The position numbers were made by a program, and so were the translations under genes. The notes below the pieces were generated by a model. The model did not search any database, had not been told where the DNA came from, and worked only from the letters and a program-made list of their open reading frames with translations. This document shows positions 6,816-50,740 of a stretch of 64,000 nt of DNA, piece after piece. The stretch comes from Escherichia phage phiEC1. The DNA lies in the sequence record KY608965.1, one strand, 5' to 3'. Numbering within the stretch: position 1 is the first letter of the stretch; every line of letters starts with the position of its first letter.

Positions 6816-6844
6816 CTATACCATAATCCTACTGTGTTGTAAAC
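6816..6844 (-). promoter_or_regulatory. early promoter (GTTTAC N18 TATAGT)
   Basis: GTTTAC at 6844-6839; -10 TATAGT inside the TAGGACT...ATCCTA inverted repeat. Confidence 0.45.
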
Positions 6845-7036: not shown

Positions 7037-7300
7037 TCATATCTCAACTTCCGCGAGTTCCATATATCCTTTGTTGATAACCTCTTTAAGGTCTTTAGAA
7101 AGAATAACACCAAAATGGTCGTTCATATGTCCGTTAACTAAACGAGTTATTTCAGCTTCAGATGACATATAAGGCACGTCTGAGTCCCAATGAGATAGAC
7201 TTAAATGAGTATAAATCATCCCTTCGTCATCTGCGGTGTTGTACATTGAAACAAATTCGCCTGTTACTTTATGTTTTGCGTAGAAAAATTTAAATTTCAT
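7037..7300 (-). CDS. hypothetical protein (87 aa)
   Basis: ATG start, SD AGAGGA. Confidence 0.5.
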   Translation of the reverse strand: MKFKFFYAKHKVTGEFVSMYNTADDEGMIYTHLSLSHWDSDVPYMSSEAEITRLVNGHMNDHFGVILSKDLKEVINKGYMELAEVEI

Positions 7301-7326
7301 GATGTTATCCTCTTTTAGATAGGACT

Positions 7327-9136: not shown

Positions 9137-11350
9137 TTATTTGGCTGCTTCCACAGCCTTCATGAATTTAACGATTTGAGCGACTTGTTCTTTAGAAAGA
9201 GTACCACGTCGTCCCATGTAGTCTGACACAATATGATAATTGGTTTCGAATTCAATAACCATTTTATCATCATTATCGTAAGCATTATCTTTAAGCTTAT
9301 CGAAAATTTTAGCACACAATTCTAACTTCTTATTCAGGTCTGTATTAGTAGCACCTGCGAATCGATTCCATCCCCAACGATTATTTACTGTTGAGAGTTT
9401 TGCAAAGTCTTTACTGATTTCTTTGTTTTTAGAGCTAAAATACTTACTAAGGAAGTTAAGCTCTTCATTACGAGTAATATGATTCAAATAAGGCTGTGCT
9501 CTACGACTTGGTGATACATACTCATCATAATCCACTTTATCGATTAGCGTAATATAGTCATTAATTGATTTTTCGAACAAGCATTCTACTTCACCAAGTT
9601 TACGAACTTTCTTAGCAATCTGTGGACGAACTACAGTGAACTCTTTAATACCTGACAAATCAGCAATACGGGTCAAGAAATTGGAGTCATAGTTCAACCA
9701 ACCTTTATCTGCGTCAAGACATTCAGCATTAGAACGATTACGAACTATAGCATAACCTTGGATTTCATCTGCTTCACTTGCCGGAATAAAGAGATCTTCT
9801 GATACCCAAACGTCGTTTTCATTCTTAAAGAATCGATGAGCACTTGGCGATTTAGGACGAGGCTCATTAGTCCGTTTCCTGACTTCAATCCATGGCTTAA
9901 CGATTTGTAAAAGCTCTGAAGTCTTGTACATGTTAATGTTGTCGCCATCAAAGATAACTTTAAGGCGTTCCAGAAGTTTCATTGCATCTTCGTCTGTAGG
10001 GTCAACGAATAGTACACTTTTACCAAAACCGCGTGGAACTTTACCAGTTAATTTAACCTCGTCTTTAGACATTTCAATTGAATTAAGAGCTCGCATTAAT
10101 GGAACGCGTCCCTTAACGTCGTCAATAACGATTTCAACATTTTTAATGTTAATGCCAATCAGGCTGTTAATTGAAATGGTCGATGATGAGCTACCACTTT
10201 CACGAATACGACGAAGACGAGGGGATTCAACGATATCATATACGACGCCAAGATTACACCACTCAGGCCCCATTTTAAAACGTTTGTACAACTCAGAATA
10301 AGTTAGTTGTTCTTTAGAGTATTTCAGTGATTCAATATTAGACCCAGCCTTTTCCATGTATTTACGAGCGGTATAACCAAGAGAATCAATTTCACGGAAC
10401 ACATGACGTGGGTATTTACAATCAATCCATTTCTTAGAATCTTCAGCGAACAATTTAGCATCAATTTCTGCAACGCGTTTATGGATATTTGCTACCGTAC
10501 GTTTATCAAATGACAATGCTTCACGAGACGGAGCTACATCTAGTTCACCCATAGGGAATTTAATATAAGCTGTAGTGCATCGTGTCATCATCCATGTTTG
10601 TTCTTTAATAACACTTCCGATTGGATATACAATACCACCGTAAACAGCCATGATATTACCGCGTTCACCCCATGGAGCTTCCTTGGCCAAATATACATCG
10701 TCAAATTCAGGGAAGTATTTGATATCTTTAACACCACGAACTTCTGCAATATCGCCGAGAGGACGCATAACATAAGCAATTTCGGATGCAAACTTTTCAA
10801 AATCTTCCGGGTTAACCGGTACGACTACTTCTACACCAGTACGGTCATCAGGACCCATCTTATCTACAAAGGTCGGCTTAATTTGTGGACCTGTGTCATC
10901 TTGGTAGATTACGTAACCACGAACTTCACCATTGTGATAAGATGTAAGGTTAAACGTATCGGTATATGCTAGTGGAGCTTTAGAGCCGAGTCCAAATCCA
11001 CCAATGAAATCGTTACTCGATGTTTTAGTTGAAGCAAAATATGAGTTATAGATTCCTGGCTCTTCGTCATTACCTCGAATGGTGAAATCGCTCATACCAG
11101 GACCAAAGTCTCGAACTACAAAACGTGGGTCTAAACGACCTGGAGCCTGAACAATAAACTTATCAGTGCAACCATTAAGAATTTGTCCATCAATACAGTT
11201 TGTGATTAATTCACGTACACAAGCCAATTCTTTGTTTGTATAAAGGTCATTAGACAAAATCTTATAAACTTTGCTATTGCCTTGAATAGTGAATGCTGTG
11301 CTCTTACCACCAGAACCAATAATCGTTTCTTTAGCCGTTTCAATAATCAT
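9137..11350 (-). CDS. rIIA: rIIA protein (GHKL ATPase-like N-terminal domain)
   Basis: 737 aa; size and position match T4 rIIA; N-terminal ELITNCIDG...DFGPGM resembles a GHKL ATPase fold. Confidence 0.9.
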   Translation of the reverse strand: MIIETAKETIIGSGGKSTAFTIQGNSKVYKILSNDLYTNKELACVRELITNCIDGQILNGCTDKFIVQAPGRLDPRFVVRDFGPGMSDFTIRGNDEEPGIYNSYFASTKTSSNDFIGGFGLGSKAPLAYTDTFNLTSYHNGEVRGYVIYQDDTGPQIKPTFVDKMGPDDRTGVEVVVPVNPEDFEKFASEIAYVMRPLGDIAEVRGVKDIKYFPEFDDVYLAKEAPWGERGNIMAVYGGIVYPIGSVIKEQTWMMTRCTTAYIKFPMGELDVAPSREALSFDKRTVANIHKRVAEIDAKLFAEDSKKWIDCKYPRHVFREIDSLGYTARKYMEKAGSNIESLKYSKEQLTYSELYKRFKMGPEWCNLGVVYDIVESPRLRRIRESGSSSSTISINSLIGINIKNVEIVIDDVKGRVPLMRALNSIEMSKDEVKLTGKVPRGFGKSVLFVDPTDEDAMKLLERLKVIFDGDNINMYKTSELLQIVKPWIEVRKRTNEPRPKSPSAHRFFKNENDVWVSEDLFIPASEADEIQGYAIVRNRSNAECLDADKGWLNYDSNFLTRIADLSGIKEFTVVRPQIAKKVRKLGEVECLFEKSINDYITLIDKVDYDEYVSPSRRAQPYLNHITRNEELNFLSKYFSSKNKEISKDFAKLSTVNNRWGWNRFAGATNTDLNKKLELCAKIFDKLKDNAYDNDDKMVIEFETNYHIVSDYMGRRGTLSKEQVAQIVKFMKAVEAAK

Positions 11351-11362
11351 ATTTTTCTCTCA

Positions 11363-11563
11363 TCACAAGTTACGTTTAAAAATTTCTGCTACTTCAAGAA
11401 GTTCTTCTTTAGTAGCTGTATCGGTTTGTATTTTATATCGAATTTCTTTAAAGCGTTCTTTAAAGGACTCTGCTGATTCGATATCAAAAAATCTTTGGAT
11501 AAGCCGGAATTCCCGGAGCACTGCTTTATCAAAAAGTTCCAAGTCCACGTTATATGTTCTCAT
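11363..11563 (-). CDS. hypothetical protein (66 aa; rIIA.1 position)
   Basis: ATG start; immediately upstream of rIIA. Confidence 0.5.
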   Translation of the reverse strand: MRTYNVDLELFDKAVLREFRLIQRFFDIESAESFKERFKEIRYKIQTDTATKEELLEVAEIFKRNL

Positions 11564-11586
11564 AATATTCTCTTCAGTAGATTCCT

Positions 11587-11641
11587 AGGGCACTATTACT
11601 AAAGACCATATAATCTATCATCTTATGTGTAATAGTGCCTC
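11587..11641. other. long inverted repeat (11-bp perfect arms GGCACTATTAC/GTAATAGTGCC, 29-nt loop)
   Basis: Arms at 11589-11599 and 11629-11639; loop carries a TATAAT-like hexamer; sits between the glycosyltransferase gene and the rIIA.1-like gene. Confidence 0.5.
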
Positions 11642-11655
11642 AGGCTATTCAGGAT

Positions 11656-12756
11656 TTACGCTGTGAAGATTTTATCCCACATCGCAACAACTGCATCTCG
11701 GTTATACTTCTTCCATACTGCTTCAGCACGTTTAACTCGAGCTTCGTATGTGTCAGTGAATTCTAATACAGCTTTTGTGTAAAGCGCAACTACTTCTTTC
11801 TTAGGAGTAGAGGAATCAATTTCTACACGCACAGTATCTGGGTCATATTCGAATGTCGCGTGCGGATAATCCTTAAAAACTAACTGAATCACAGGGACAC
11901 CTTTAGAGATGGCTTCAATAGAACTATTCTCTACCGTACCCGTGTCAGGACACGTATTGATAAGTGCTTTAGCTGTTTTAAGACGTTCCATGATTTCACT
12001 GTGTGGAGCATCAATAATAACAGGATATTTAGCTGGTGGTGCCCATTTACTAGGACAGTATCCTGCGCCATTTTCGCCTAGTGCTTTAATCGCTTCAAGA
12101 GCAACATCAGTACGACGCATTTTAGTGTCATAACGTTGTGCACTAATAATCAGATCAGTCGCCGGAAGAACTTCAGGTTTCTCATTCAAACAAATAACCG
12201 GATAATCTTCGGCTTCAAACAACGGATTTGCTCGCCAATAATCATAATCAATTTTGTCAGTCAGACCTGAAGTCATATAACAATATTTACGTTCAAATTC
12301 ACGGAAGGCTTTAGTAGGAGCATAGCTCTTACCACCATTCTTATGAATTTGAATAGTCTGGTCCCAAATTTGAACAATGCCACGAGATACCGGTTCAAAT
12401 GGTGTTGCCATAAAATTCTTATGAACTTTAGAGAGACCTGCGTCTTTAATTGCCTGAACGGTTAGTTTAGTCGGTTCCATAGTAACAACAAAATCGTATT
12501 CATGGATGCCGGCTAGTTCAACAATCTTACGAGCCATAGTATAACTCATACCTAGACTGAATTTAGTCAGATGACCAACAGGATGATGATTAACCTTCCA
12601 ATCACCAAATGTGTCATTATCAAAACCGATATAATCAATATCAGCACCGATGGACACAAGATATTTCAACACATTTAAATGTACTGCTTCAAGACCACCT
12701 TGTACACGTTCTGGGTTAAATGGGACCGCACGAGATGGGATAAACATAACTTTCAT
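11656..12756 (-). CDS. GT-B fold glycosyltransferase (GT4-like); candidate DNA hydroxymethylcytosine glycosyl(arabinosyl)transferase
   Basis: 366 aa; N-terminal MKVMFIPS...GGLEAVHLNVLKYL and C-terminal E.SSIEAISKGVPVIQ resemble the GT4 donor-binding region; located between rIIA and gene 39 where T4 has 60/mobA. Confidence 0.6.
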   Translation of the reverse strand: MKVMFIPSRAVPFNPERVQGGLEAVHLNVLKYLVSIGADIDYIGFDNDTFGDWKVNHHPVGHLTKFSLGMSYTMARKIVELAGIHEYDFVVTMEPTKLTVQAIKDAGLSKVHKNFMATPFEPVSRGIVQIWDQTIQIHKNGGKSYAPTKAFREFERKYCYMTSGLTDKIDYDYWRANPLFEAEDYPVICLNEKPEVLPATDLIISAQRYDTKMRRTDVALEAIKALGENGAGYCPSKWAPPAKYPVIIDAPHSEIMERLKTAKALINTCPDTGTVENSSIEAISKGVPVIQLVFKDYPHATFEYDPDTVRVEIDSSTPKKEVVALYTKAVLEFTDTYEARVKRAEAVWKKYNRDAVVAMWDKIFTA

Positions 12757-12761
12757 AATTA

Positions 12762-12800
12762 AGCCTTATTAAAATTAAAATGAAGCTCCTGAAGGAGCTT
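12762..12800 (-). terminator. intrinsic terminator downstream of gene 39
   Basis: AAGCUCCU-UC-AGGAGCUU hairpin (12783-12800) followed on the minus strand by CAUUUUAAUUUUAAU. Confidence 0.5.
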
Positions 12801-12814
12801 AGGACATCTATCAA

Positions 12815-14635
12815 TTAACCAAGCATCCAGTCTTTACGGAGTTCAGGGTCGTTACCCATGAGCATTTCAAATAGTTCTTTCCAATTTTCAGGAAGTTTAA
12901 CTACGTCGTACACAGGGTTTTGAATCATTTCTTTATATTCATCCCGCTGAAGTGAGCCCAATCCCTTGATGTATCGAATACTATGCTTAGGCAGCGTATC
13001 TTTAGCTTCTTCATACTCAGCTACAGTATAAAACCATTTTTGAGTTTTGCCAATTTGTGCAATAATTACAGGTGTTTTAACAAAGCGAATACGTCCTTGT
13101 TCAAACAATTCAGGCCAATTACTAAAGAAAGCAAGCAAAGCAGGATAAATACTTCCAAGGCCGTCATGATCGGCATCGGTCATAATTGCAATATTACGAT
13201 AGTTCGTATTCTCTGCCTTTTCACCAAGAATAAGACCTGTGATAGCACAGATATCAAAGAGCTCTTTGTTCTTCATCATATCAGCATATGACATACCCCA
13301 GCTATTCATCACCTTACCACGTAATGGGAATCCACCGTGTAGTTCACGGTCACGAACATCAATGAGATAACCAATTGCCGAATCACCTTCTGTTAAAAAC
13401 AATGTCGTATCTGCATCTTTACCACATTGGTTAGCTTTAATATGCTTATGAACCTTAGCTTTAGTTGCCTTTTTAGCTGCTTTAGTTTCTGCAGCCTTTT
13501 CTGCTGCCAATTTACGAGCTAATGCTGCTTCAACAATAGGCATAATCAAGGCTTCGTTTTTAAGAAGCGCCTGAGCAATTTTCTTAGCATCTAATTGGAT
13601 ATGATTACGAATATCACCATACGTTGACGTTAAACGTTCTTTAGTCTGAGAATCAAAACGCATGTTGCTCATGTCTCTAATAAACATCAACATTGTGAGA
13701 CATTCTTTAACACGAGCTTTAGTGACTTCAATACCCTTATATTTCTTTTTAATACCGGGCAAAAGATGTTCGCAGATATCATCCATTACACATTCAACAT
13801 GATGACCACCATTTTTAGTATGGATGTTATTCACATAAGTTAAATGACGGAAGCCATCTGGTGATGTTGTGAATGCTATAGAGACTTTATCATTTTCTTG
13901 AATGATGTTATCTTCGCCAAATTGTTTAGCAAATCGTTTAAAATTACCATCAACCTTTTTACCATTAAATGTGAACTTGATATCAGGATAAACGACTGCC
14001 AATGTTTGAAGCCGGTCTAAAGTAATATCTAAATAAATTTGAGATAAATTATGTTCTTCAAATGAAGAGAAATCAGGAGTGAAGATTACTTTAGTGCCTT
14101 TACCTTTAGATTTCTTAGAAGACCATGATTTGTTTTCCATTCCGTTTGAACAGTTAACAGTGATTTCATTTTCGCCATCTGACGTGATGCCTGTAAACAA
14201 CGTAGAGAAGATATTAGTTAAACTACTCCCGACGCCGTTCATACCACCAGTCTTGCGTTCAGAATCATCGCCAAAGTTACCACCAGCCTTTGGAATAGTC
14301 CAGGCTGCTACAGGCCCAGGAATTTGTTCACCTGTTTGGTCGGTAACTAAACCTTGAGGAATACCACGTCCGTTATCTTCCACCGAAACTTGATTATTTT
14401 TAATTTGCACATCAATTTTATTTGCAAACTTAAATGATGTACGAATAGCTTCATCAACCGAGTTGTCAATAATCTCATCGATTAATTTAACCAGACCAGG
14501 AACATATTCAACTTGTTGATATTTACCAAACAAAAAACGCTCATGTGCTTCTTTAGCCGAAGAACCAATATACATACCACTGCGTTTCTTAATATGTTCT
14601 ACATCTGACAATACCTTAATTTCATTTTTAATCAT
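12815..14635 (-). CDS. 39: DNA topoisomerase II large subunit (GyrB-like), fused gene 39 (no separate gene 60)
   Basis: 606 aa continuous ORF; MIKNEIKVLSDVEHIKKRSGMYIGSS... with GHKL ATPase and Toprim signatures; T4 splits this into 39 plus 60. Confidence 0.95.
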   Translation of the reverse strand: MIKNEIKVLSDVEHIKKRSGMYIGSSAKEAHERFLFGKYQQVEYVPGLVKLIDEIIDNSVDEAIRTSFKFANKIDVQIKNNQVSVEDNGRGIPQGLVTDQTGEQIPGPVAAWTIPKAGGNFGDDSERKTGGMNGVGSSLTNIFSTLFTGITSDGENEITVNCSNGMENKSWSSKKSKGKGTKVIFTPDFSSFEEHNLSQIYLDITLDRLQTLAVVYPDIKFTFNGKKVDGNFKRFAKQFGEDNIIQENDKVSIAFTTSPDGFRHLTYVNNIHTKNGGHHVECVMDDICEHLLPGIKKKYKGIEVTKARVKECLTMLMFIRDMSNMRFDSQTKERLTSTYGDIRNHIQLDAKKIAQALLKNEALIMPIVEAALARKLAAEKAAETKAAKKATKAKVHKHIKANQCGKDADTTLFLTEGDSAIGYLIDVRDRELHGGFPLRGKVMNSWGMSYADMMKNKELFDICAITGLILGEKAENTNYRNIAIMTDADHDGLGSIYPALLAFFSNWPELFEQGRIRFVKTPVIIAQIGKTQKWFYTVAEYEEAKDTLPKHSIRYIKGLGSLQRDEYKEMIQNPVYDVVKLPENWKELFEMLMGNDPELRKDWMLG

Positions 14636-31577: not shown

Positions 31578-31919
31578 TTAAAAGAATTTAAATTTTTTCT
31601 TGGTTCGTTCATTAAAAGCTTGTTGTACCTGCATTGTAACACATTTTTCAACATGTGGTGCAAGTTCTGCTTTTCTGTCCTGGTCAAGAACTGCAAAGTC
31701 CATTACGATTTTACCATCAACCCAGTCTAGTTTTGTAATATAGACTATATGATGAGAACCATCTTCAAGTGTAATCAGAATCTCTTGAATGACATTTTCC
31801 ATTGCTGAACGGATAATTTTAAGAGATTCATTAAACACTCGTTCTTTGCGAATGTCTTCCCCTTCCGAAGAAGGGGATTCATCAACGATTTCTAGATTTA
31901 AATCATCGAGATTATTCAT
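31578..31919 (-). CDS. 40: gp40-like protein (113 aa; head vertex assembly chaperone position)
   Basis: Start set to ATG at 31919, overlapping the uvsX stop; the longer track ORF would overlap uvsX by about 150 nt. Confidence 0.5.
   Translation of the reverse strand: MNNLDDLNLEIVDESPSSEGEDIRKERVFNESLKIIRSAMENVIQEILITLEDGSHHIVYITKLDWVDGKIVMDFAVLDQDRKAELAPHVEKCVTMQVQQAFNERTKKKFKFF
31859..31876 (-). other. stable hairpin CCCCUUC-UUCG-GAAGGGG inside the 5' end of gene 40
   Basis: Perfect 7-bp GC-rich stem with UUCG tetraloop about 40 nt downstream of the gene 40 start; no U-run follows. Confidence 0.5.
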
Positions 31920-33084
31920 CGAAATCTTCCATTTCGTCAAGGTCGTTTTCAATATCTGCTGCAGACGGAGCATCAGAAGCTTTAACCGGAACTTTAGTTG
32001 TTGCTTTGCAATTAATAAGGTCGTTAACAGCGTCATCAACTTCTTTAATAGAAGAGATAGCACCTAGTTTATATTTAGTTTCAATTGCATCTCGGAAAGG
32101 TTTGTGTTTAAACAAAGGTCCCCAGAATTCTACGCAATCAGTAGCTTTAGCACGCCATGATTTCTCTTCACGAATCATTTCGCCTGTTTCTTCGTCAAGG
32201 AATTCGCGAGCATACCACCCGGCTTTAGGCTTAACTACAAAACCAATTTCAGTTGCCATTTCTAGCAAGCCACTGAATGGGTCGATACCGCCATCAAAAT
32301 TAACTGTGATCGGGAAAGTAGATTTCTCTTTAACTGTACGAGATTTTTCTGCTTTCAACGTGAAGTCATAACCGGTCAATTCTGTACCTTCTTTAACCTG
32401 ACGTTTAGAGATAAAGAATACAGTGTTAGCAGAGTAAAGAATACCTGTACCACCGCCCATAATCTCTTTAGGATATAGTCCGCCGATTTCCATTGCTGTA
32501 TGGTTGATTGCAACACATGGAATATCTTTAATAGTCAGATACGGGGTTACAATACGGAAAAGAGATTTAAGTGCCTTAGCACGAGACATATCACCTACGA
32601 CTTTCTCGTTCAATGCATCTTCGGTTTCTTTCTTAGATGCAGTATTACCGATTGAATCGATAAAGATAATAACTTTATCACCGCGTTCAATTGCATCAAG
32701 CTGATTAGTCATATCAACTTTAAGTTGTTCGACGGACTGAATTGGTGTATGAACTACACGGTCTAAATCAACACCCATTGAACGGAAGTAAGATTCTGAA
32801 GCACCGAATTCTGAGTCATAGAACAAACAGATTGCATCTTTATATTTCTTCATATACGCTGCAACCATAGTTAGTCCAAACAATGTTTTAAAATGTTTAG
32901 AAGGTGCAGCAAAAATAGTCAAGCCTGATTGCAATCCTGCATTCAGAGCACCACCTAGTGCAATATTCAACATCGGAATACGAGTAGGGACTTCATCACG
33001 ATTATTAAACAGCTTAGACTTAGTCAAGTCTGCAGTCATTTTAGAAGTAGAAGCTTTAATCAGACGAGATTTTAAATCAGACAT
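31912..33084 (-). CDS. uvsX: recombinase UvsX (RecA-like)
   Basis: 390 aa; MSDLKSRLIKASTSK... and Walker motifs match T4 UvsX as recalled. Confidence 0.95.
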   Translation of the reverse strand: MSDLKSRLIKASTSKMTADLTKSKLFNNRDEVPTRIPMLNIALGGALNAGLQSGLTIFAAPSKHFKTLFGLTMVAAYMKKYKDAICLFYDSEFGASESYFRSMGVDLDRVVHTPIQSVEQLKVDMTNQLDAIERGDKVIIFIDSIGNTASKKETEDALNEKVVGDMSRAKALKSLFRIVTPYLTIKDIPCVAINHTAMEIGGLYPKEIMGGGTGILYSANTVFFISKRQVKEGTELTGYDFTLKAEKSRTVKEKSTFPITVNFDGGIDPFSGLLEMATEIGFVVKPKAGWYAREFLDEETGEMIREEKSWRAKATDCVEFWGPLFKHKPFRDAIETKYKLGAISSIKEVDDAVNDLINCKATTKVPVKASDAPSAADIENDLDEMEDFDE

Positions 33085-33183: not shown

Positions 33184-33732
33184 TTAACGAGCCCATTTGA
33201 TAATTTCTGTAATCAAATTATTACGTTCGCTTGCATTAAATCCTATAACTTTGTTAGCACCATCATGATTAAGTAATTGATACGTTTGGATTTTGTTATG
33301 AATTGCAAACTCTTCAAAATGTGAAATGACTGTATTAAAACCGAATGAAGACAAAGTAATAAGGTCGTCTTCAAAACTTTCAGTCATTTCATTACGTGTT
33401 AAAATAATTGTGAACACATCATGGTTTTGGCAAAGACGAACATAATCCTGTTCATAAACATCAAGAACCGAGTCCGCATCTTGTCGAATACGTCCATAAA
33501 CCCAGTTACTAATATATCCACGGTCTAACAGATAAATCTTAGTAGGGTCTAAATAATTCAACATCGTTTCGAAACAGCCAACTTCATTTCGAGACTTAAC
33601 ATCGAAACGTCCATCAACTGTTCGTTTAGGGAAATCAATCTTTACATATCTTTCACTAATTTCCATTATGTCATTAATGAAAGTTGTTTTACCGGCATTA
33701 TCCGGGCCGTCTACTAAAATAATTTTAGCCAT
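33184..33732 (-). CDS. P-loop kinase (thymidylate kinase-like fold)
   Basis: 182 aa; Walker A VDGPDNAGKTT and LLDRGYIS (DRY-like) motif; occupies the beta-gt interval of the T4 map. Confidence 0.5.
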   Translation of the reverse strand: MAKIILVDGPDNAGKTTFINDIMEISERYVKIDFPKRTVDGRFDVKSRNEVGCFETMLNYLDPTKIYLLDRGYISNWVYGRIRQDADSVLDVYEQDYVRLCQNHDVFTIILTRNEMTESFEDDLITLSSFGFNTVISHFEEFAIHNKIQTYQLLNHDGANKVIGFNASERNNLITEIIKWAR

Positions 33733-33733
33733 T

Positions 33734-34633
33734 TTATTCCTCGATTACGACATCTTCGTATTTAGGTATATTATACGGCGAAGAAATTAAAGCATTAAAG
33801 TAGATGAACTCACCAAGACCTGGATGGAATACTTCTTCAGGATTTTCGAAATATTGAATCTTCGGACGTCCTTTAAGAATTTGATAGTACTCAGTTTTAG
33901 TTGGATTAAAAATTCGAATCAGCGCTTCTTCAGGATACTTATTTCTGTCGAAGCTATTATTTGGATCGGTTATATAAAGCGGTTGACCTAATTGAATTGC
34001 GCATTCAACCACTTGTTCAAAACGATAACACGGGTCACTAATTCGAAATGGATGAAAAATACCATCTAGATGAATAGGAGCCAAATCACCTACAAGACGC
34101 TGCATGACGGAAGGACGTATAACTTTCTGCGTTACGATAATCTTATTACCATCGGCACCTGCGTTAACCAGCACTTCCTTTTGACGTTCATTCAACACAG
34201 TAGTTTGAAGTGAACGATTAACAGACAACATGTCGGTTTTTAAGAATTCATCAATATAAAAACGTGGTTTATTAGGGTCTGCAGTGATATTGAAATTGAA
34301 TTCTACGTCAAAAGCGCCATCATATCCAGTGATATCTGTGATTAGAAAATCACAATCATAATAAGCAATTAATGAATCAACCACAAATTCATTTTCAGAC
34401 CAAAAATATTTACGAGTGTTATATGCGTTATCTTTATACCATAATGGAACAAACTTAAATTCCGGGAAAAGACGTTCACATTCTTTAATATCAGATGCAT
34501 TACGTGGATATGTAATCACATCACCTGGATTAGCACGGTGCAAATGAAGTTGGAAGTTGCCATCCTTAAGGATAGCATACTGTCCAGTTTCATAAGACCG
34601 CATACTCAAGATAGGTACGCGGAAAATAGCCAT
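33734..34633 (-). CDS. hypothetical protein (299 aa) in the beta-gt interval
   Basis: ATG start; TAATG coupling to the gene 42-like ORF; no similarity to T4 beta-glucosyltransferase recognised. Confidence 0.5.
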   Translation of the reverse strand: MAIFRVPILSMRSYETGQYAILKDGNFQLHLHRANPGDVITYPRNASDIKECERLFPEFKFVPLWYKDNAYNTRKYFWSENEFVVDSLIAYYDCDFLITDITGYDGAFDVEFNFNITADPNKPRFYIDEFLKTDMLSVNRSLQTTVLNERQKEVLVNAGADGNKIIVTQKVIRPSVMQRLVGDLAPIHLDGIFHPFRISDPCYRFEQVVECAIQLGQPLYITDPNNSFDRNKYPEEALIRIFNPTKTEYYQILKGRPKIQYFENPEEVFHPGLGEFIYFNALISSPYNIPKYEDVVIEE

Positions 34634-35349
34634 TAGTCAAGGAATCCTTTAACATAATCAAAATCACGTTCAAACACATGGGCACTTACCATGGTATGAG
34701 TATAATCACCAACTTCTACACCGCATTCGTTAGCGATATAATGAAGTAATTTTCCTTGGAGATAAAAATCCAACTGCATAACAACAGCACAGTTCTGAGA
34801 ACGCATATGGCAGTGGGTATAAAGCTTACCATCACGAATATAATAAGTCACTGAGTCAGTACATGGATATTCAAGTGTTTCGTCCGAATCAAGCAAAGCC
34901 TGATCAGAACTTTCTAGAATTTGGAACACAACTCTTCGAGAGTTAGGTTTCTCTTTAAGTTCTTTTAGAAGAGCTGGTAATTGGGCCACAATGCGAGGAC
35001 CATAGAAAGTGTTGAAGTTCGCAGGCAAAGCATCTGATTTTGGTTTAGAAATGAATTTAGCGACATTAGGATATGCCTTAAACGCTTCTTCTGCATCAGT
35101 ACCACCAGAAATCATAAACTTCCAGAAGTCTTCGGCATATTCATAAGAGATGCGGTTAATACGTGGGTCGGTCATTTTGAACGATGATGGATTGTCAACA
35201 ACTACTGTCATGGACCCGATTTCATTACAACGTCCAATACGAGAATCAGTTACGAATTCCGGGTTTTCTAAAATTTCACGATTGACTGCTTTAAATGCGG
35301 TTTGAAAATCTGCGGCTTTGATATATTTCATTGTGTTATGTTTTCCCAT
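34633..35349 (-). CDS. 42: thymidylate synthase-family pyrimidine C5-modifying enzyme, probable dCMP hydroxymethylase
   Basis: 238 aa; NSRR, YPCT (Pro-Cys nucleophile), HMRSQ and IANECGVEVGDYTHT motifs of the ThyA/dCMP hydroxymethylase fold; Asp (not Asn) in the MQLDFY region suggests cytosine specificity. Confidence 0.55.
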   Translation of the reverse strand: MGKHNTMKYIKAADFQTAFKAVNREILENPEFVTDSRIGRCNEIGSMTVVVDNPSSFKMTDPRINRISYEYAEDFWKFMISGGTDAEEAFKAYPNVAKFISKPKSDALPANFNTFYGPRIVAQLPALLKELKEKPNSRRVVFQILESSDQALLDSDETLEYPCTDSVTYYIRDGKLYTHCHMRSQNCAVVMQLDFYLQGKLLHYIANECGVEVGDYTHTMVSAHVFERDFDYVKGFLD

Positions 35350-35391
35350 GTTTACCTCAATACAATTTATTATATACTCAATTCATAAAGC

Positions 35392-35631
35392 TTATTTGAA
35401 TTTCTTGGCAATGTTGATATAACGTAAAGCTTCAGAATCTATACTTCCAAGAACACTATGAAGAAATGCATCAGCGTAGTATTCCAATTGAACAGGTTCT
35501 TTAATCACTTTAGCCGCTTTGGTTTCAAACAGGCCCATCAGGGCCTTTTTAAGAATTTGTTCATTAGTGTTCAGTTTTATAGTCAAAATCTCTTCATTAA
35601 GTTGGTGGTTAAAAGTTTTTCTAGAAATCAT
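35392..35631 (-). CDS. hypothetical protein (79 aa)
   Basis: ATG start; ATGA coupling to the upstream ORF. Confidence 0.45.
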   Translation of the reverse strand: MISRKTFNHQLNEEILTIKLNTNEQILKKALMGLFETKAAKVIKEPVQLEYYADAFLHSVLGSIDSEALRYINIAKKFK

Positions 35632-36797
35632 TCCGGGTACCTCAAAGCGTCATCAGAGTTAGTTATATCAATAATAGATATAGAGTTTTCTGATAACCCA
35701 TTTTTAGATAACTGACGTTTATAATATCTTTCACAATATGTACACGTCGTCCCGCAGATTTCATTAGCACAATCGAAATCTGGATGTCTGAACCACCTTT
35801 TTTCTAAAAAGCCATCTAACAAAGAGGTTTCAATATTTACTGTATGTGAAAACTCAGTTTCGTTTTCAAGAGTGAAAATAGTCTCTAAAGGCTTCCACAG
35901 TTCTAACAAATTACCTTCAAACTTTTCAGAAGCGTATGCTTCAAGAACTTTCAAAATGTAGTCTGTGCTACCTGTACGTCCTGAAACTTTGAATTGAGTG
36001 ATACCAATATCATTATAAAGTTTCAAATCTTGAGGACGAACAAAACGAGTTCTCAACCAGTTAAATGGGTCTGTATCACGAGCTTTAATACAGTGCTGCA
36101 TAGGATATCCGTTTAAGGATTTAGCATCATCAGCTGTAACATCAGTACTATGGAAAATATAGCAAGAGTCACGATAGCTACAATGTGTTGTATACCCTTT
36201 ACCAGCATTAGAACAGAACTCATTTACAAGAACTTCAAATATTATATTGTTCTTATTGCAAAACTCTGCTGCACGCTTCAGGAAAGAAACTGAACGGTTC
36301 TTATGAATTCCGCAACAGACTTTTTTGATGTTATATTGGTCGTGCAAGTATTTGATTTGAGTTACGGCATCAACATGTAGAATTGTTGAAACTTCAATCT
36401 CAATATCTTTATTGACTTCACGAACAATTTCCATAACAACAGGGTTAGCGATAGTAATACGCCATACGCCTATTGACCAAAGATACTGAACATAATCCTG
36501 AATAGCTTTCTTCTTCCACTCAACTAGTTCTCTTTTTGAACCAGGATTTATCGTGTTGAGTGTATAGTTAAAGCAAATACCTAATTCGTTACAACGTTTA
36601 ACGTAGTCTTCTAACATCTTTTTGTCAACGTCAGGAAGCCTAAAATCAGGTCTGGCTGCTACAAAAGCCATTTCTCTTGTAGAGCCATATACTTCGTTTA
36701 TCAAGCTATTAGGATAGGTTTTATTGAGCTCTACGATTTTATCAAGAAGAGCTAAATCAAAATTCGTTCCGATTTTAAAAGTATTCATTTTTTGCAT
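35628..36797 (-). CDS. Cys-rich enzyme of unknown family (389 aa; possible TIM-barrel sugar isomerase/epimerase-like or U32-like Fe-S protein)
   Basis: N-terminal FKIGTNFD...; C-terminal cluster DFDCANEICGTTCTYCERYY; family assignment is tentative. Confidence 0.35.
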   Translation of the reverse strand: MQKMNTFKIGTNFDLALLDKIVELNKTYPNSLINEVYGSTREMAFVAARPDFRLPDVDKKMLEDYVKRCNELGICFNYTLNTINPGSKRELVEWKKKAIQDYVQYLWSIGVWRITIANPVVMEIVREVNKDIEIEVSTILHVDAVTQIKYLHDQYNIKKVCCGIHKNRSVSFLKRAAEFCNKNNIIFEVLVNEFCSNAGKGYTTHCSYRDSCYIFHSTDVTADDAKSLNGYPMQHCIKARDTDPFNWLRTRFVRPQDLKLYNDIGITQFKVSGRTGSTDYILKVLEAYASEKFEGNLLELWKPLETIFTLENETEFSHTVNIETSLLDGFLEKRWFRHPDFDCANEICGTTCTYCERYYKRQLSKNGLSENSISIIDITNSDDALRYPE

Positions 36798-36844
36798 CTC
36801 GCGTTAATTGATGCGATGGTTTTTTGCAGGTCTTACTTAAATTA

Positions 36845-37231
36845 TTATAGATTCGGTTTATATGATTTAAATGTTTCGAATTCGCCTTTATTCATAAGAG
36901 CTTTGAATTCGTCAGGACGCATAGCTTTGTCGTCGATAATCCAATCATATACTGGTTTATGTGTTAGCAAATTATGATACTTCAAACCAATGTTTTCCAA
37001 GTTCTGAATCAGACTTGGGAGAATGTCAATTGCTATACGTCCAGGACCTACTGACTTCATACCGCGTGCAGTATAAAGCGTTATAGTATGCCCTGCATCA
37101 TACAGGGCATTAATGGCGGTCACCATTTCGACGTCTGGTTTGAAGTTCACATAATCACGATTGTTATTCCACTCTGTTATACAATCATCGACATCAAAAC
37201 AAAGATTAAGCATGTTTTCTACACGGTGCAT
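36845..37231 (-). CDS. HAD-superfamily phosphatase
   Basis: Start set to ATG at 37231 (TAATG coupling); HAD motif I FDVDDCI near the N-terminus and a C-terminal DD pair. Confidence 0.55.
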   Translation of the reverse strand: MHRVENMLNLCFDVDDCITEWNNNRDYVNFKPDVEMVTAINALYDAGHTITLYTARGMKSVGPGRIAIDILPSLIQNLENIGLKYHNLLTHKPVYDWIIDDKAMRPDEFKALMNKGEFETFKSYKPNL

Positions 37232-38916
37232 TAGATTCGTTCCCATTGATGAGTGATATCGCCACCGATTGGACGATAGGAAACACCAGTTTCTTTATCA
37301 GTTAGTACCCATTTACCAGGATTTTTTGTAATCAGAGTAGCCGTTACAGGTTCTGCTACGTCATAACTAATAGAGCCGTCTTGAAGTACACGGCCCATGT
37401 TACGTAATTGCTTAGTCAGAAGTTCCATACCTTTATAATATGCGGCAACCGCTTTAAGTGGATTATTCTTGAAATAACCACCTAATGCAATCCAAATAAT
37501 TGCTACAGCCAAATGATGATACTCGTTAAACGAACTCATCTTTCCATATTTGTAAACTAATGGATTGATGTTAATAGTCACATTACAAGTTGTTTCATCA
37601 ATAGTAAACTGTCCCCAGGTCGGATTAGCATTGAATTCATCATAACCTGAAACAGCATAAAGCACTTTAGCTTCATCATACAATTTTGGCCCGTAAATCT
37701 TGGTTTCACCAAAATATCCACGAGGGTCGATAAACTTGACTTCGCCGTTATCAGTAATCATAGTATTACTGAAGTTTGGGTCACCGTGAATAACAGAGTA
37801 CTGTCCCTGAGAACGGTTATGATAACGAATAAGATGTTCTAAAGCTTGTTTCAACATTGGCTTCAGACGTCCAATCTTAGTGTAGTTCACGTGTGTGATT
37901 TTACCAAATGAATCAATCAATGGCTGAATGCTTTCACAACGATCAATAACTTTCGTATAGAACTCTTTAGTGAAATCACGGCGAACAGTTTCAGGACTTA
38001 CAAAATAAGTGTCTGTGCTGAATTTCAGTGCATCTAAAATTGCATCAACAATTTGTGGACGAGCAAGACTTGATTTGGATTTAATATATTCAAATGCCGG
38101 CTTACCTTTAATACGTTCCATTTCAAAATTATTTTCATTTACCGAAACTAACTGAGGAACTGAATCTGATTTCACTTTCAAATACCATGAAATCTCATCT
38201 TTTTGAAGAGCTCGACCTTGTTCGGTTAACGCGAATTTAGTTACAGTTTCTTCGCCAATTTCAACTGCATTAAAACTACGATTAAGTTCACGAACTTCAT
38301 GAGCTTTTTCAAGTTTAGGCATATCACCTAAATCAATTAGATTCATAAGCTCTGATTTATTGAATGCACTGCCGTAAAGGAATTCTACGAAATCACGTCC
38401 TTTGCAGTATTCGTGAATTTCCTCGTCAGTAGAACCCATGTAGAATTCCCAGTCTTTGAACTGATAAATTCCTACAACATTACCGCCTGTTGAACCTACG
38501 TTAGTGATATTTTCACCATCGAAATTATATCGACATTCATCACCCTTAACATAGATTGCGTTAACATTCCAAGACCATGAACCAAAATCAGGAATAATAT
38601 CACACCAGTTAACAATTACATTATGGCCATCTAAATCTTTGTATAATTTAGCAAGAGCATAAGCAGAACCATACGCTTCATCAACTGTACGAATAGTCAC
38701 ATTGAACCCTTCTTGCTCACAATAAGCTCGAACAGTTTCAGCAAATTTTGAATGAACTACTACAATAATTTCATCTGCGCCAAGGTCAGAATAAATTGTA
38801 TACAAATTGCTCAGAATAGTGTCTTGCTTATAGTTCACAAGAACTTTTGGAATATGGTGAGTAATTGGATATAAACGAGTTGCCAATCCAGCACCAAGAA
38901 TAACAGCTTTTTTCAT
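37231..38916 (-). CDS. bifunctional sugar-1-phosphate nucleotidyltransferase (RmlA/MurU-like, N-terminal) / anomeric sugar kinase (APH/AmgK-like, C-terminal)
   Basis: 561 aa; N-terminal KAVILGAGLATRLYPIT (G-x-G-T-R-x-x-P-x-T nucleotidyltransferase signature); C-terminal HGDPNFSN and FIDPRG kinase catalytic-loop motifs. Confidence 0.65.
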   Translation of the reverse strand: MKKAVILGAGLATRLYPITHHIPKVLVNYKQDTILSNLYTIYSDLGADEIIVVVHSKFAETVRAYCEQEGFNVTIRTVDEAYGSAYALAKLYKDLDGHNVIVNWCDIIPDFGSWSWNVNAIYVKGDECRYNFDGENITNVGSTGGNVVGIYQFKDWEFYMGSTDEEIHEYCKGRDFVEFLYGSAFNKSELMNLIDLGDMPKLEKAHEVRELNRSFNAVEIGEETVTKFALTEQGRALQKDEISWYLKVKSDSVPQLVSVNENNFEMERIKGKPAFEYIKSKSSLARPQIVDAILDALKFSTDTYFVSPETVRRDFTKEFYTKVIDRCESIQPLIDSFGKITHVNYTKIGRLKPMLKQALEHLIRYHNRSQGQYSVIHGDPNFSNTMITDNGEVKFIDPRGYFGETKIYGPKLYDEAKVLYAVSGYDEFNANPTWGQFTIDETTCNVTININPLVYKYGKMSSFNEYHHLAVAIIWIALGGYFKNNPLKAVAAYYKGMELLTKQLRNMGRVLQDGSISYDVAEPVTATLITKNPGKWVLTDKETGVSYRPIGGDITHQWERI

Positions 38917-38957
38917 GTTGAAGTCCTCATTGGTAAGTAGGTGTATTGTACACTATT

Positions 38958-39101
38958 CTAGTTAAAGCATTCATACTTTGCTTGTAGTCCAATCATAATC
39001 CATCCAATTACAAGTGTTGGAATCATTACTGGAGCCGTTAAGCTCCAGTAGATAGTCATGACAAGCATCAATAGTAAAAGTCCTATTGTTATTGCTTTCA
39101 T
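38958..39101 (-). CDS. small membrane peptide (47 aa)
   Basis: ATGA-coupled to the SIS gene stop; single hydrophobic helix; below track cutoff. Confidence 0.35.
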   Translation of the reverse strand: MKAITIGLLLLMLVMTIYWSLTAPVMIPTLVIGWIMIGLQAKYECFN

Positions 39102-39733
39102 TGTTCGCCTCGTAACATGGCACCTAGTGCACCGCCTGGATGGAACTTAAGGAAGTCATTAGAGGTAAATCCACGTTCAGACGAAAGGTTGATAGCAAAC
39201 GTATCGATAAGCGCTAACAACAATGTAGTGGACATGGTCGGAGCCAGAGAATTCTCGTCAACCTCTACCGCGATACCGGTACAGAACGTATAATCAAAAA
39301 GAGCTTCGTATTCTTGCGGAATGTCAGGGTTACAATGTAACAGAATCTGTTTAACCTGAGGACGAATCATACGAAGATGTTTAGCAACACCTATCATTTC
39401 TTCAGTCTTACCAGAACGACTGATGTGAACTAATACATCATTGGGTGCAATAAATCCTGCATCCCCATGAGAATAATGCCCAGTGTTCAAGTACATACTC
39501 GGGATACCGAGTGAAGCAAAAGTCTCTGAAGCTTTAGTTGCGATATTAGCGTTCTTACCAACACCTGTAATAATTACACGACTTTCATAATTACTCAGTC
39601 CAGGGCGACGAAGAGTTTCAAGAATAACATTATATCGGGCAGAGTTTTGACTAATTACTTTAGCCATAGTGGCAAGAGATGAAGCTTGTTTTACGATTGC
39701 GTCAATAGCGATAGTGATTGGTGTAGTTTTCAT
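39098..39733 (-). CDS. SIS-domain sugar-phosphate isomerase (arabinose-5-phosphate isomerase KdsD/GutQ-like catalytic domain, no CBS domains)
   Basis: 211 aa; ITGVGKNANIA, HGDAGFIAP, ISRSGKTEE, LAPTMSTT and HPGGALG motifs characteristic of KdsD-type SIS domains. Confidence 0.7.
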   Translation of the reverse strand: MKTTPITIAIDAIVKQASSLATMAKVISQNSARYNVILETLRRPGLSNYESRVIITGVGKNANIATKASETFASLGIPSMYLNTGHYSHGDAGFIAPNDVLVHISRSGKTEEMIGVAKHLRMIRPQVKQILLHCNPDIPQEYEALFDYTFCTGIAVEVDENSLAPTMSTTLLLALIDTFAINLSSERGFTSNDFLKFHPGGALGAMLRGEQ

Positions 39734-49735: not shown

Positions 49736-49780
49736 ATTATTTCCTCATTAGTTAATTCATTCTATCATCCGTTTATAAAG

Positions 49781-49807
49781 CAAAAAAAGGAACTCCGAAG
49801 AGTTCCT
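49781..49807 (-). terminator. intrinsic terminator upstream of gene 47
   Basis: AGGAACU-CUUCGG-AGUUCCU hairpin followed by UUUUUUUG on the minus strand. Confidence 0.6.
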
Positions 49808-49979
49808 ATCCACATAGTACACCGTACAGAGGCTCATTTGAACTTTTAAATCGAATGGGCTTGTATGTAATAGTTCCTTCGGCTTTAGCTTTATCATAAG
49901 ACTCTTTAAAACGTCTCATTCTTTCTGCTTTGCCTTTACGGATTTTATCGAAATTTTCAGAAGTCGGGATGTTCGTCAT
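49806..49979 (-). CDS. hypothetical basic protein (57 aa)
   Basis: ATG start; below track cutoff; stop overlaps the terminator stem. Confidence 0.35.
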   Translation of the reverse strand: MTNIPTSENFDKIRKGKAERMRRFKESYDKAKAEGTITYKPIRFKSSNEPLYGVLCG

Positions 49980-50018
49980 GCATAAGCACCTCTCAGAAAA
50001 TGCCTAAATCAATTTCTC

Positions 50019-50225
50019 TCATCGTTTCCACCATTTCTTAACTTGAAATGAATCGACCCACACGAGTTGTTTTGGGTCTGCCTTTACAATAGGCGGACAA
50101 ATTTCTGTAATAGAACCGTCGTGATATTCCTTTTCGGAAATTTTAACACAAAGAGGACCACCCAATTTAATGGTGAACCCTGCGTTCAGCTTCAGACGTT
50201 TAAACTTTGTTTGAACTAGCGCCAT
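50019..50225 (-). CDS. hypothetical protein (68 aa)
   Basis: Track start is TTG; ATG at 50225 with GAGGA SD. Confidence 0.4.
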   Translation of the reverse strand: MALVQTKFKRLKLNAGFTIKLGGPLCVKISEKEYHDGSITEICPPIVKADPKQLVWVDSFQVKKWWKR

Positions 50226-50523
50226 TAATGATGTCCTCAATAGCCTGACGAGTAGTAACCCACTGGATTTTAATTAACTTGTCATTATATGGTTGTCGTA
50301 GAATATCCCGAGATTTCTTAATAGCATATTCGTAAGCTTCGAAGTTGTTTTGAATTGCTGCTTCTTGAGCGTGAGCATAAAGACGGTTTAGTTCAAAACG
50401 ATTCTTTTTAAGAATCTTTTCGGATTTTTTACGTGCTTCAGCTTCATTTTTCTTTTGGATTTCTTGTAGCATTTTAGCTACTGCATCTTCTGCTTCTTTA
50501 TTTTCAATAATCTCGGTAGTCAT
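50200..50523 (-). CDS. hypothetical charged/coiled-coil protein (107 aa)
   Basis: ATG start. Confidence 0.5.
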   Translation of the reverse strand: MTTEIIENKEAEDAVAKMLQEIQKKNEAEARKKSEKILKKNRFELNRLYAHAQEAAIQNNFEAYEYAIKKSRDILRQPYNDKLIKIQWVTTRQAIEDIINGASSNKV

Positions 50524-50524
50524 A

Positions 50525-50740
50525 TTATCTCATTAAATTAAAATAAAAACGTCCATCCTCTTCAATACAGAACTCATACTCAACCGGAGTCCCATTTATC
50601 GAAAATGACACGTCATGTGGGTTCAAAGGGTCGATGTCAAAATTAATTTTAAATTCACGACCCAACAGTTTTACCAAATAAGGGATTGCTTCGTCAAAAG
50701 GTTCTTCTAAGTAGTTAGAGATGTCAATTGTCATCCTCAT
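50525..50740 (-). CDS. hypothetical protein (about 71 aa)
   Basis: Start uncertain; the track ORF begins inside gene 55; ATGs at 50740/50734 follow the gene 55 stop. Confidence 0.3.

Follow-up and report, generated by a model that had tools for sequence, protein, structure and literature searches.

The modified base of RB69 DNA has been identified by mass spectrometry and NMR as beta-D-Araf-(1-3)-alpha-D-Araf-5-hydroxy-dC (PMC13326640, NAR 2026), and it is established that in RB69-type DNA the arabinose is ether-linked to 5-hydroxycytosine, without the hydroxymethyl group (PMC13326640, PMC13390438). Related phages carry variations of this chemistry: Mosigvirus NP contains mono- and di-arabinosyl-dC at 1:4 (PMC13390438), the DNA of Bas46 and Bas47 is doubly arabinosylated (PMC12923530), and Thanatos is mono-arabinosylated and has a single arabinosyltransferase (PMC13326640). 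In vitro, gp76 and gp77 of the Acinetobacter phage DLP3, supplied together with UDP-Araf, attached a third arabinose to RB69 DNA, while each of these transferases was inactive alone (PMC13326640). A further transferase, encoded between rIIA and the topoisomerase gene, has been proposed as a second arabinosyltransferase ('beta-arabinosyltransferase 2' or Aat) (PMC13326640, PMC13390438), the role of its RB69 representative, gp3, being marked as proposed (PMC13326640). As reported in PMC13216743, which cites Mahler 2025, deleting Aat made Bas46 more susceptible to a defence system.

The 64-kb window, i.e., the whole stretch of phage DNA that was analysed, carries a gene of this type. Indeed, the ORF scan of the window returned a 366-aa frame with an ATG start and a TAA stop at 11656..12756 on the minus strand, exactly where the initial annotation had placed a glycosyltransferase between rIIA and gene 39, and this frame is a genuine gene rather than a chance ORF. 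On one side lie rIIA (9137..11350) and rIIA.1 (11363..11563; Pfam T4_RIIA1, E 2e-30), and on the other an unsplit gene-39-type topoisomerase II large subunit of 606 aa (12815..14635); in T4, the corresponding slot holds gene 60, 60.1 and mobA. The GC content of the transferase gene (0.38-0.42) is similar to that of its surroundings. A recent foreign insertion, considered on the grounds of composition, was rejected since the GC content resembles that of the neighbouring DNA. Around the gene, a promoter scan found sites no more numerous than in shuffled sequence. In the 58-nt spacer between the stop of gene 39 and the transferase start, a terminator-like match on the minus strand (12783..12800) consists of a short GC-rich hairpin and, after it, a T-rich run, and its fold is no better than that of shuffles (z -0.97). 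The same spacer is a homing-endonuclease insertion site in some relatives: p000v has a 798-bp homing endonuclease gene there, one is likewise found between the transferase gene and gene 39 in phiC120, phiE142 and a20, and the window has none. On the other side, the 92-nt spacer from the transferase stop to rIIA.1 (11564..11655, minus strand) contains a hairpin with a perfect 11-bp stem, GGCACUAUUAC...GUAAUAGUGCC; its RNA fold reaches -28.6 kcal/mol (z -4.3; none of 200 shuffles was equally stable), and no U-run follows the hairpin.

The gene is already known: it is the proposed Mosigvirus DNA arabinosyltransferase designated RB69 ORF003c, gp3 or 'Aat', and it is not new because it has been published, annotated and structurally solved. 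The 366-aa protein is 99.5% identical over 366 aa to RB69 ORF003c (NP_861693.1), for which Thomas et al. had proposed an arabinosyltransferase function in 2018 (PMC6024577), as the initial annotation correctly stated. Bas46_0103, which we read as the 'Aat' of Mahler et al. 2025, occupies the same genomic slot, is identical at 364 of 366 positions and is named "putative hmC-arabinosyltransferase" in GenBank. About 98% identity links the protein to PDB entries 9iqz and 9ir0, released in July 2025 as "phage HY126 glycosyltransferase" in the apo form and with UDP, and these two entries were the sole matches when phmmer and a family profile were run against all PDB sequences. The family is present in 211 phage records, about 155 of them at 95% amino acid identity or more and 56 at about 42%, and only in phages possessing a DNA-arabinosylation cassette. 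A k-mer-seeded homolog search gave five clusters, and when all 1.84 billion representatives were searched exhaustively with an HMM, only 12 matched, the strong ones relatable to phage sequences only. Divergent metagenomic members (P0007-P0010) have no closer cultured relatives and lie on contigs too short for context, and a scan of IMG/VR for the family retrieved the same isolates and nothing further.

Regarding the fold, the 98%-identical crystal structure establishes the GT-B architecture and the UDP binding of the 366-aa protein. The AlphaFold2 model is poor, the alignment being shallow (pLDDT 61, with residues 115-188 below 50), and the solved structure was therefore relied on instead; despite the low pLDDT, the model superimposes on 9ir0 with a TM score of 0.72. 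The next-best Foldseek matches are GT4-type UDP/GDP-sugar GT-B enzymes, namely BshA, PimA and WaaG, as well as tll1591 (E ~1e-7, probability 1.00), these scores being approximate because the model is of low confidence. The glycosyltransferase fold predicted by the initial annotation is hence borne out, and the GT4-like signatures that it described hold for the motifs as well as for the fold. At the level of motifs, the conserved G20-G21, R208...R214 and E281-A-I-S-K-G-V-P-V align with bacterial Glyco_transf_4/Glycos_transf_1 proteins, the EX7E motif being incomplete: its second Glu is E281, which is invariant, T272/G273 stand where the first Glu would be, and another invariant residue, E276, precedes E281 by five residues. 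At the level of family models, scans of the protein gave no Pfam family even at E<=1, so that Glyco_transf_4 and Glycos_transf_1 are not matched at gathering score, and no NCBIfam family; in PHROGs, it matches phrog_8302 (E 9e-223, positions 1-366 of 366), an entry without functional name. Weak profile matches alone connect the family with established GT4 proteins (P0015, P0016; E 1e-4). The comparison with characterised phage transferases that the initial annotation had advised yielded no similarity between the protein and T4 a-gt or b-gt (blastp E >= 5, hhalign probability below 1%), and blastp and hhalign gave none to a 299-aa transferase also encoded in the window. Shared ancestry with these three enzymes is therefore not demonstrable by sequence.

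The 299-aa transferase gene, located 21 kb from the 366-aa transferase gene, belongs to a complete arabinosylation cassette (33184..39733) that fills the b-gt slot, from gene 43 to uvsX. All on the minus strand, its genes encode a 182-aa nucleotide (thymidylate-type) kinase (33184..33732; phrog_761 thymidylate kinase, equivalent to RB69 gp45 in Table 1 of PMC13326640); the 299-aa protein itself (33734..34633), which has no Pfam, NCBIfam or PDB relative, is equivalent to RB69 gp46:47 and is the putative first, base-proximal alpha-arabinosyltransferase, as proposed in PMC13326640; and a thymidylate-synthase homolog assigned as the 5-hydroxy-dCMP synthase (34633..35349; Pfam Thymidylat_synt), near-identical to the HY126 enzyme in PDB 9iqc, 9ir2 and 9iqu. 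Further along are a 389-aa Peptidase_U32-family protein (35628..36797; PF01136, E 7e-11, with a weak NCBIfam match to UbiU), found in 221 phage records, all at 80% identity or more, and absent from Acinetobacter phages and JS98; a 133-aa HAD-like phosphatase (36845..37246; phrog_1238) equivalent to AfhF and RB69 gp51, for which PMC13326640, citing He et al. 2026, gives the reaction from Araf-1,5-P2 to Araf-1-P; a 561-aa bifunctional sugar kinase and UDP-arabinose pyrophosphorylase (37231..38916; equivalent to AfhE and RB69 ORF53_52c, function from PMC13326640) with an N-terminal Pfam NTP_transferase domain, a kinase-like C-terminus and NCBIfam nucleotidylyltransferase matches; and a 211-aa SIS-domain arabinose-5-phosphate isomerase (39098..39733; Pfam SIS, E 8e-10; RB69 gp55 equivalent, PMC13326640, Table 1). 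The link to the genes near gene 43 that had been left as a conjecture is real, the 366-aa protein belonging to the DNA arabinosylation system encoded there, and the polymerase is of the RB69 type, as had been noted (2094 bits over 903 aa against RB69 polymerase structures). The statement that the T4 glucosyltransferase slots hold unrelated genes needs more nuance: the window has no homolog of a-gt or b-gt (tblastn best E 1.9) and the a-gt slot, between gene 47 and gene 55 (49736..50723), contains small ORFs only, but the cassette in the b-gt slot is functionally related.

With a probability of about 0.78, we propose that the RB69 gp3-type GT-B enzyme adds a second arabinose onto arabinosyl-5-hydroxycytosine in DNA. 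Its acceptor base would be 5-hydroxycytosine, and hmC, as assumed in the initial annotation, is excluded by the published MS and NMR data (PMC13326640, PMC13390438) together with the thymidylate-synthase homolog of the window, whose RSQN motif corresponds to D169N in E. coli ThyA numbering while T4 gp42 has RSND and keeps the Asp; both this signature and the 5-hydroxy-dCMP synthase activity are described in PMC13326640. The distribution of the two transferases points to the step. The 299-aa enzyme is found in 348 phage records from at least 15 host genera, including Shewanella phage Thanatos; the 366-aa family is limited to Mosigvirus-type phages, with one copy, and to Acinetobacter phages, in which two copies lie in tandem within the cassette, directly adjoining the kinase and the 299-aa transferase. 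Across the few phages that are chemically characterised, 0, 1 or 2 copies of the 366-aa family track mono-, di- or tri-arabinosylation (Thanatos; RB69, NP, Bas46 and Bas47; DLP3). A second-step role is most likely because of the D169N signature, the presence of the 299-aa enzyme in all arabinosylating phages and the restricted occurrence of the 366-aa family.

It is quite unlikely that the 366-aa protein is instead the primary transferase placing arabinose directly on the modified cytosine, be it hmC or 5-hydroxycytosine. This reading agrees with the 2018 proposal, which was based on HMM/HHpred similarity of ORF003c to T4 a-gt and GT4 enzymes, with the GenBank name of the Bas46 ortholog and with the fact that the first-step enzyme was not reconstituted in vitro in PMC13326640. 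However, beyond the exclusion of hmC, at least 137 phage records, including JS98-like, Klebsiella, Enterobacter, Serratia, Yersinia and Proteus phages, have the 299-aa transferase and the cassette and no 366-aa homolog (E<=1e-3), the rIIA.1-39 slot of JS98 being an unannotated 588-bp gap, and Thanatos, which is among them, is still arabinosylated. As the 299-aa transferase occurs in every arabinosylating lineage and the 366-aa protein only together with two or three arabinoses, the direct arabinosylation of the base suggested by the initial annotation is probably wrong.

Indirect support for the transfer of a second sugar comes from this distribution, from the biochemistry of the Acinetobacter paralogs and from the proposals in the literature. 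The 366-aa protein shares 43% and 41% identity over its full length with the tandem paralogs of DLP1 (genes 075/074), and synteny with these genes identifies DLP3 gp76 and gp77 as the equivalent pair. The finding that the DLP3 paralogs are active only as a pair hints at cooperative complexes in the family, and the 366-aa enzyme might accordingly be processive or of dual specificity, installing both arabinoses, or extend the first sugar only in complex with the 299-aa transferase. We regard this as very unlikely, since the two transferase genes are 21 kb apart, there is no sign of such a complex in Mosigvirus, and the alpha and beta linkages argue for two separate catalytic sites. Least probable of all, and very nearly negligible, is a target other than DNA, be it a glycan of the host envelope, a protein or some small molecule. 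Such a target could be suggested by PimA, BshA and WaaG, the nearest relatives by structure beyond the family itself, which act on lipids, thiols and LPS, and by sub-threshold Pfam 'GT4-conflict' matches on distant family members. Against it, the Acinetobacter paralogs lie inside the DNA-arabinosylation cassette and are active on DNA in vitro, and the family is confined to cassette-bearing phages and has just 12 representatives among 1.84 billion proteins.

Within the preferred second-step scheme, the flavin- and O2-dependent thymidylate-synthase homolog would produce 5-hydroxy-dCMP, so that dC in DNA would be replaced by 5-hydroxy-dC, and ribulose-5-P would be converted to UDP-D-arabinofuranose by the isomerase, the bifunctional kinase/uridylyltransferase and the HAD phosphatase. 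The 299-aa transferase would place alpha-D-Araf on O5 of the base, and the 366-aa enzyme, with UDP-Araf as donor, would add another D-Araf at O3 of that sugar. This would yield beta-D-Araf-(1-3)-alpha-D-Araf-5-O-dC, which is the main modified base in RB69-type DNA, and its second sugar would broaden protection against DNA-targeting host defences. The order of action, the second-step role, the linkage and the stereochemical mechanism given here for the 366-aa protein are to be read as probable assignments. GT4-type enzymes are canonically retaining. The alpha and beta arabinoses originate from one UDP-D-Araf donor, so that retention by one GT-B enzyme and inversion by the other must be involved. 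That the 366-aa enzyme is the one that inverts is a tentative and rather unlikely reading; if so, it would represent an atypical mechanism for the GT4 fold, with a furanoside carried by DNA as its substrate. In the same tentative vein, the single Mosigvirus copy may act as a homo-oligomer, in place of the heteromeric paralog pair on which the Acinetobacter phages depend.

The extra arabinose would enlarge a hypermodification of the DNA by which RB69-like phages are protected against restriction enzymes, CRISPR-Cas and DNA glycosylases, and would also affect which modification-dependent defences still detect them, which is relevant for the choice and engineering of therapeutic coliphages. Instead of hmC arabinosyltransferase, a better annotation is putative second-step DNA arabinosyl-5-hydroxycytosine arabinosyltransferase. 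Automated pipelines will go on naming the gene hypothetical because Pfam, NCBIfam and PHROGs assign it no function.

Among known systems, RB69 ORF003c, Bas46_0103 and the HY126 transferase are essentially the same protein as the one studied here, with 98-99.5% identity across the full 366 residues and only 1-7 substitutions, in the same rIIA.1-39 slot and with the same gene 43 cassette. The Acinetobacter proteins (DLP3 gp77/gp76, DLP1 ADLP1_075/074 and Acj61 p076/p077) belong to the same family and have the same conserved motifs, and the DLP3 pair likewise acts on arabinosylated 5hoC-DNA with UDP-Araf (PMC13326640). They differ in that DLP3 has two tandem copies inside the cassette, required as a pair in vitro and adding a third arabinose in beta-1,5 linkage, whereas Mosigvirus has a single copy located 21 kb away. 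PimA (2gej), BshA (3mbo) and WaaG (2iv7) share with the 366-aa protein the two-Rossmann GT-B fold, the nucleotide-binding C-terminal domain, the R...K/R pair and the E-A-x-x-x-G-x-P-V helix, but at 11-14% identity, and the 366-aa family lacks a conserved first Glu in EX7E and has the invariant E276 instead. Unlike bacterial GT4 enzymes, the 366-aa enzyme is proposed to act on a DNA-borne sugar, and its product is reported as a beta-furanoside. T4 a-gt (CAZy GT72) and b-gt (GT63) are, like it, phage GT-B enzymes that use a UDP-sugar on modified cytosines of duplex DNA in a post-replication counter-defence. However, they are without detectable sequence similarity to it, their donor is UDP-glucose rather than UDP-Araf, and they glycosylate the hydroxymethyl oxygen of 5hmC, while the 366-aa enzyme would use a sugar hydroxyl on ara-5hoC. 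The nearer functional analogue among T-even phages is the beta-alpha-glucosyltransferase of T2 and T6, which converts glucosyl-hmC into gentiobiosyl-hmC.

The 366-codon ORF found by window ORF analysis at exactly 11656..12756 (minus strand) is a real and correctly located feature, and its product is a GT-B transferase belonging to the RB69 arabinosylation system. The gene is already known: its proposal dates from 2018 and its GenBank annotation from 2021, a structure was released in 2025, and its role and chemistry were revised in 2025-2026. When nucleotides 11000-13200 were compared with phage genomes, 153 Mosigvirus-type matches of 95-99% identity were obtained, the best being p000v (98.6%). 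By tblastn, the proteins of vB_Eco_mar005P1 and TH12 are 100% identical to the 366-aa protein, RB69 ORF003c is 99.5% identical, and about 155 records reach at least 95%; a second group at ~42% identity comprises 56 records, nearly all from Acinetobacter T4-like phages with two per genome. The DNA polymerase is RB69-type, as the initial annotation noted for its N-terminus, and, together with these protein and DNA relatives, establishes that the window derives from an RB69-like Mosigvirus. NCBI has the exact sequence under a number of accessions, nearly all of them named 'hypothetical protein', and PHROGs places it in phrog_8302 ('unknown function'); in Bas46 the same slot holds an ortholog (364/366 identical) that carries the annotation 'putative hmC-arabinosyltransferase'. 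The family is tiny: 1.84 billion clustered proteins yielded 12 representatives, and a search of IMG/VR returned no further diversity.

Regarding the fold, the protein matched no Pfam or NCBIfam family, permissive thresholds included. It is ~98% identical over its full length to PDB 9iqz ('phage HY126 glycosyltransferase'), and 9ir0 is the same HY126 protein 'with UDP'; both entries were released on 2025-07-16 and are attributed to He et al. 2026 (Nat Chem Biol). A weak AlphaFold2 model (pLDDT 61), built on a shallow six-sequence alignment, superposes on 9ir0 with a TM of 0.72, its next-best matches being UDP/GDP-sugar GT-B enzymes of GT4 type (BshA, PimA, WaaG, tll1591; E ~1e-7). G20-G21, R208, R214 and E281-A-I-S-K-G-V-P-V are invariant in family alignments, and these motifs align with their counterparts in two weakly matched bacterial proteins carrying Pfam Glyco_transf_4/Glycos_transf_1. 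In place of a conserved first glutamate, as expected from the GT4 EX7E motif, the family has an invariant E276. The proposed 'GT-B, GT4-like' assignment thus holds for fold and motifs and not for formal GT4 membership by profile.

The chemistry of the system has been revised. Thomas et al. (2018) found arabinose in RB69 DNA, described the base as arabinosyl-hmC and put forward the 366-aa ORF003c as the responsible transferase (PMC6024577), exactly the 2018 proposal invoked by the initial annotation. Later MS/MS and NMR work established that mono-/di-arabinosylated 5-hydroxy-deoxycytidine takes the place of cytosine in RB69, the major base being beta-D-Araf-(1-3)-alpha-D-Araf-5-O-dC, without a methylene bridge, and that 5-hydroxy-dCMP is made by a thymidylate-synthase (TS) homolog marked by a D169N change (Lee et al., NAR 2026; PMC13326640). 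The Durham-collection paper reports the same bases in Mosigvirus NP, with a mono:di ratio of 1:4 (PMC13390438).

In the window, the DNA-arabinosylation cassette is complete between gene 43 (39774..42485) and uvsX (31912..33084), in the order SIS-type arabinose-5-P isomerase, 561-aa nucleotidyltransferase+kinase, 133-aa HAD-like phosphatase, Peptidase_U32 protein, TS homolog, 299-aa transferase and nucleotide kinase. Its TS homolog reads RSQN, for RSCD(169) in E. coli ThyA and RSND in T4 gp42, and is near-identical to PDB 9iqc/9ir2/9iqu; the Acinetobacter phage homolog shares the N at position 169. D169N and this near-identity indicate that phiEC1 makes 5-hydroxycytosine (5hoC), not 5hmC, contradicting hmC as the acceptor base. 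No a-gt or b-gt homolog was found anywhere in the 64-kb window, and the a-gt slot holds small ORFs only.

Sequence comparison of the 299-aa transferase (33734-34633, minus strand; phrog_3891, 'unknown function') with Pfam, NCBIfam and PDB gave no relative. It occurs in 348 phage records; besides Mosigvirus and Dhakavirus, these cover phages of Klebsiella, Enterobacter, Serratia, Yersinia, Proteus, Edwardsiella, Shewanella (Thanatos) and Acinetobacter. For the 366-aa protein the count is only 211, from Mosigvirus-type and Acinetobacter phages. The ratio of the two in Mosigvirus is essentially 1:1 (153 vs 155 records at ≥95% identity). Acinetobacter phage DLP1 has two paralogs in tandem, with 43% and 41% identity to the 366-aa protein, inside the cassette, directly adjoining the kinase and the 299-aa transferase, which gives a genomic basis to the link with the gene-43 cassette that was initially only surmised. 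Across chemically characterised phages, 0, 1 and 2 copies of the 366-aa family track 1, 2 and 3 arabinoses (Thanatos; RB69/NP/Bas46/47; DLP3), while the 299-aa transferase is universal. Bas46 and Bas47 are doubly arabinosylated according to one citing paper (PMC12923530), and according to another, Bas46 lacking the arabinosyltransferase 'Aat' is sensitised to a defence system (PMC13216743). RB69 gp3 appears in Lee et al. as putative 'beta-arabinosyltransferase 2' and gp46:47 as putative first transferase; their assays showed that RB69 DNA gains a third arabinose when DLP3 gp76 and gp77 are supplied jointly with UDP-Araf (PMC13326640).

Because copy number tracks arabinoses, the 299-aa transferase is universal and paralogs act on arabinosylated DNA with UDP-Araf, second-step transfer of D-Araf from UDP-D-Araf to O3 of the first Araf is the best-supported mechanism (probability about 0.78). 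UDP-D-Araf would be bound in the C-terminal Rossmann domain, where R208, R214 and E281 are conserved and UDP is present in 9ir0, and the sugar would pass to the base-proximal alpha-D-Araf on duplex DNA. No in-vitro reconstitution of the 299-aa transferase was found in the accessible literature; this presumed first, base-proximal enzyme is therefore the less-characterised of the pair, and the same gap at step one leaves a small probability that the 366-aa protein acts directly on 5hoC. Such a primary role is nevertheless improbable, as many arabinosylating phages lack the gene and, for hmC, the base itself is wrong given D169N. A non-DNA acceptor is very unlikely. The initial claim of a DNA arabinosyltransferase hence survives as membership of the arabinosylation system, not as primary transferase on hmC, and 'arabinosyl-5-hydroxycytosine DNA arabinosyltransferase (second sugar, putative)' is a better label than 'hmC arabinosyltransferase'. 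For this putative second-sugar enzyme, stereochemistry adds a constraint: with an alpha first sugar, a beta second sugar and one donor for both, as reported for RB69, one transferase must invert and the other retain. The clan of the 366-aa protein is canonically retaining, yet the protein's EX7E motif is altered, and the assignment turns on which anomer of UDP-D-Araf the phage makes.

The Peptidase_U32 protein (389 aa; 35628-36797, minus strand) is far more conserved than its cassette neighbours: 221/221 phage records are at least 80% identical, and identity is 82% in Shewanella Thanatos-2 vs 47.5% for the Thanatos-1 counterpart of the 299-aa transferase. It weakly matches UbiU. The U32 family includes UbiU/V and the O2-independent hydroxylases RlhA (ho5C in 23S rRNA) and TrhP (ho5U in tRNA). 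The phage protein could provide an oxygen-independent route to 5-hydroxycytosine complementing the O2/flavin-dependent TS homolog. Lee et al. only guess at a 'sugar or heterocycle reductase' (PMC13326640). The gene is absent from all cassette-bearing Acinetobacter phages and from JS98. As JS98 is an E. coli phage, the latter absence argues against a simple aerobe/anaerobe split. The JS98 (Dhakavirus) cassette lacks both the U32 gene and the SIS isomerase, with a 166-aa orf43 in their stead (6805-7305 of JS98 locus L015), and its gene content, without a 366-aa homolog, predicts mono-arabinosylated DNA and possibly another arabinose-5-P source.

Finally, ORF and Pfam analysis confirmed the gene between the rIIA side and gene 39. 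In the direction of transcription it is followed by rIIA.1 (11363..11563; Pfam T4_RIIA1, E 2e-30) and rIIA (9137..11350) and preceded by gene 39 (12815..14635, minus strand). Base composition over the transferase gene is unremarkable. The 92-nt spacer 3' of its stop (within 11564-11660, minus strand) forms a very stable hairpin whose stem is 11 bp long and perfect (-28.6 kcal/mol; z -4.3; 0/200 shuffles equally stable). The hairpin lacks a U-run and is therefore no canonical terminator; possible roles are in RNA stability or processing, or it may be an insertion-boundary relic. Shigella phage JK45, classed as Tequatrovirus despite its Mosigvirus-type locus, has between its full-length transferase and rIIA.1 an extra 136-aa ORF (721-1131 of locus L014) that matches the family by tblastn and is apparently a partial tandem duplicate. 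A homing endonuclease gene of ~800 bp separates transferase and gene 39 in the close relatives p000v, phi25-307, a20, phiC120, phiE142, SQ17 and F27, at the same hotspot as T4 mobA and the gene 60 split; the window has a short hairpin and T-run there instead. In p000v it lies at 2300-3097 of locus L003, equivalent to window 12757-12814. In JS98 only an unannotated gap of 588 bp separates rIIA.1 from gene 39 (2437-3024 of locus L013). Since JS98 combines this gap with a cassette and no 366-aa homolog, the transferase gene is a lineage-specific occupant of a slot shared with the p000v endonuclease and T4 gene 60/mobA; the equivalent T4 interval holds gene 60 and mobA, as initially annotated, and also 60.1. 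Gene 39 itself is of the 39+60 type, a single 606-aa ORF for an unsplit topoisomerase II large subunit spanning ATPase, Toprim and C-terminal regions, whereas T4 has the gene 60 split and a 50-nt translational bypass, both absent here.
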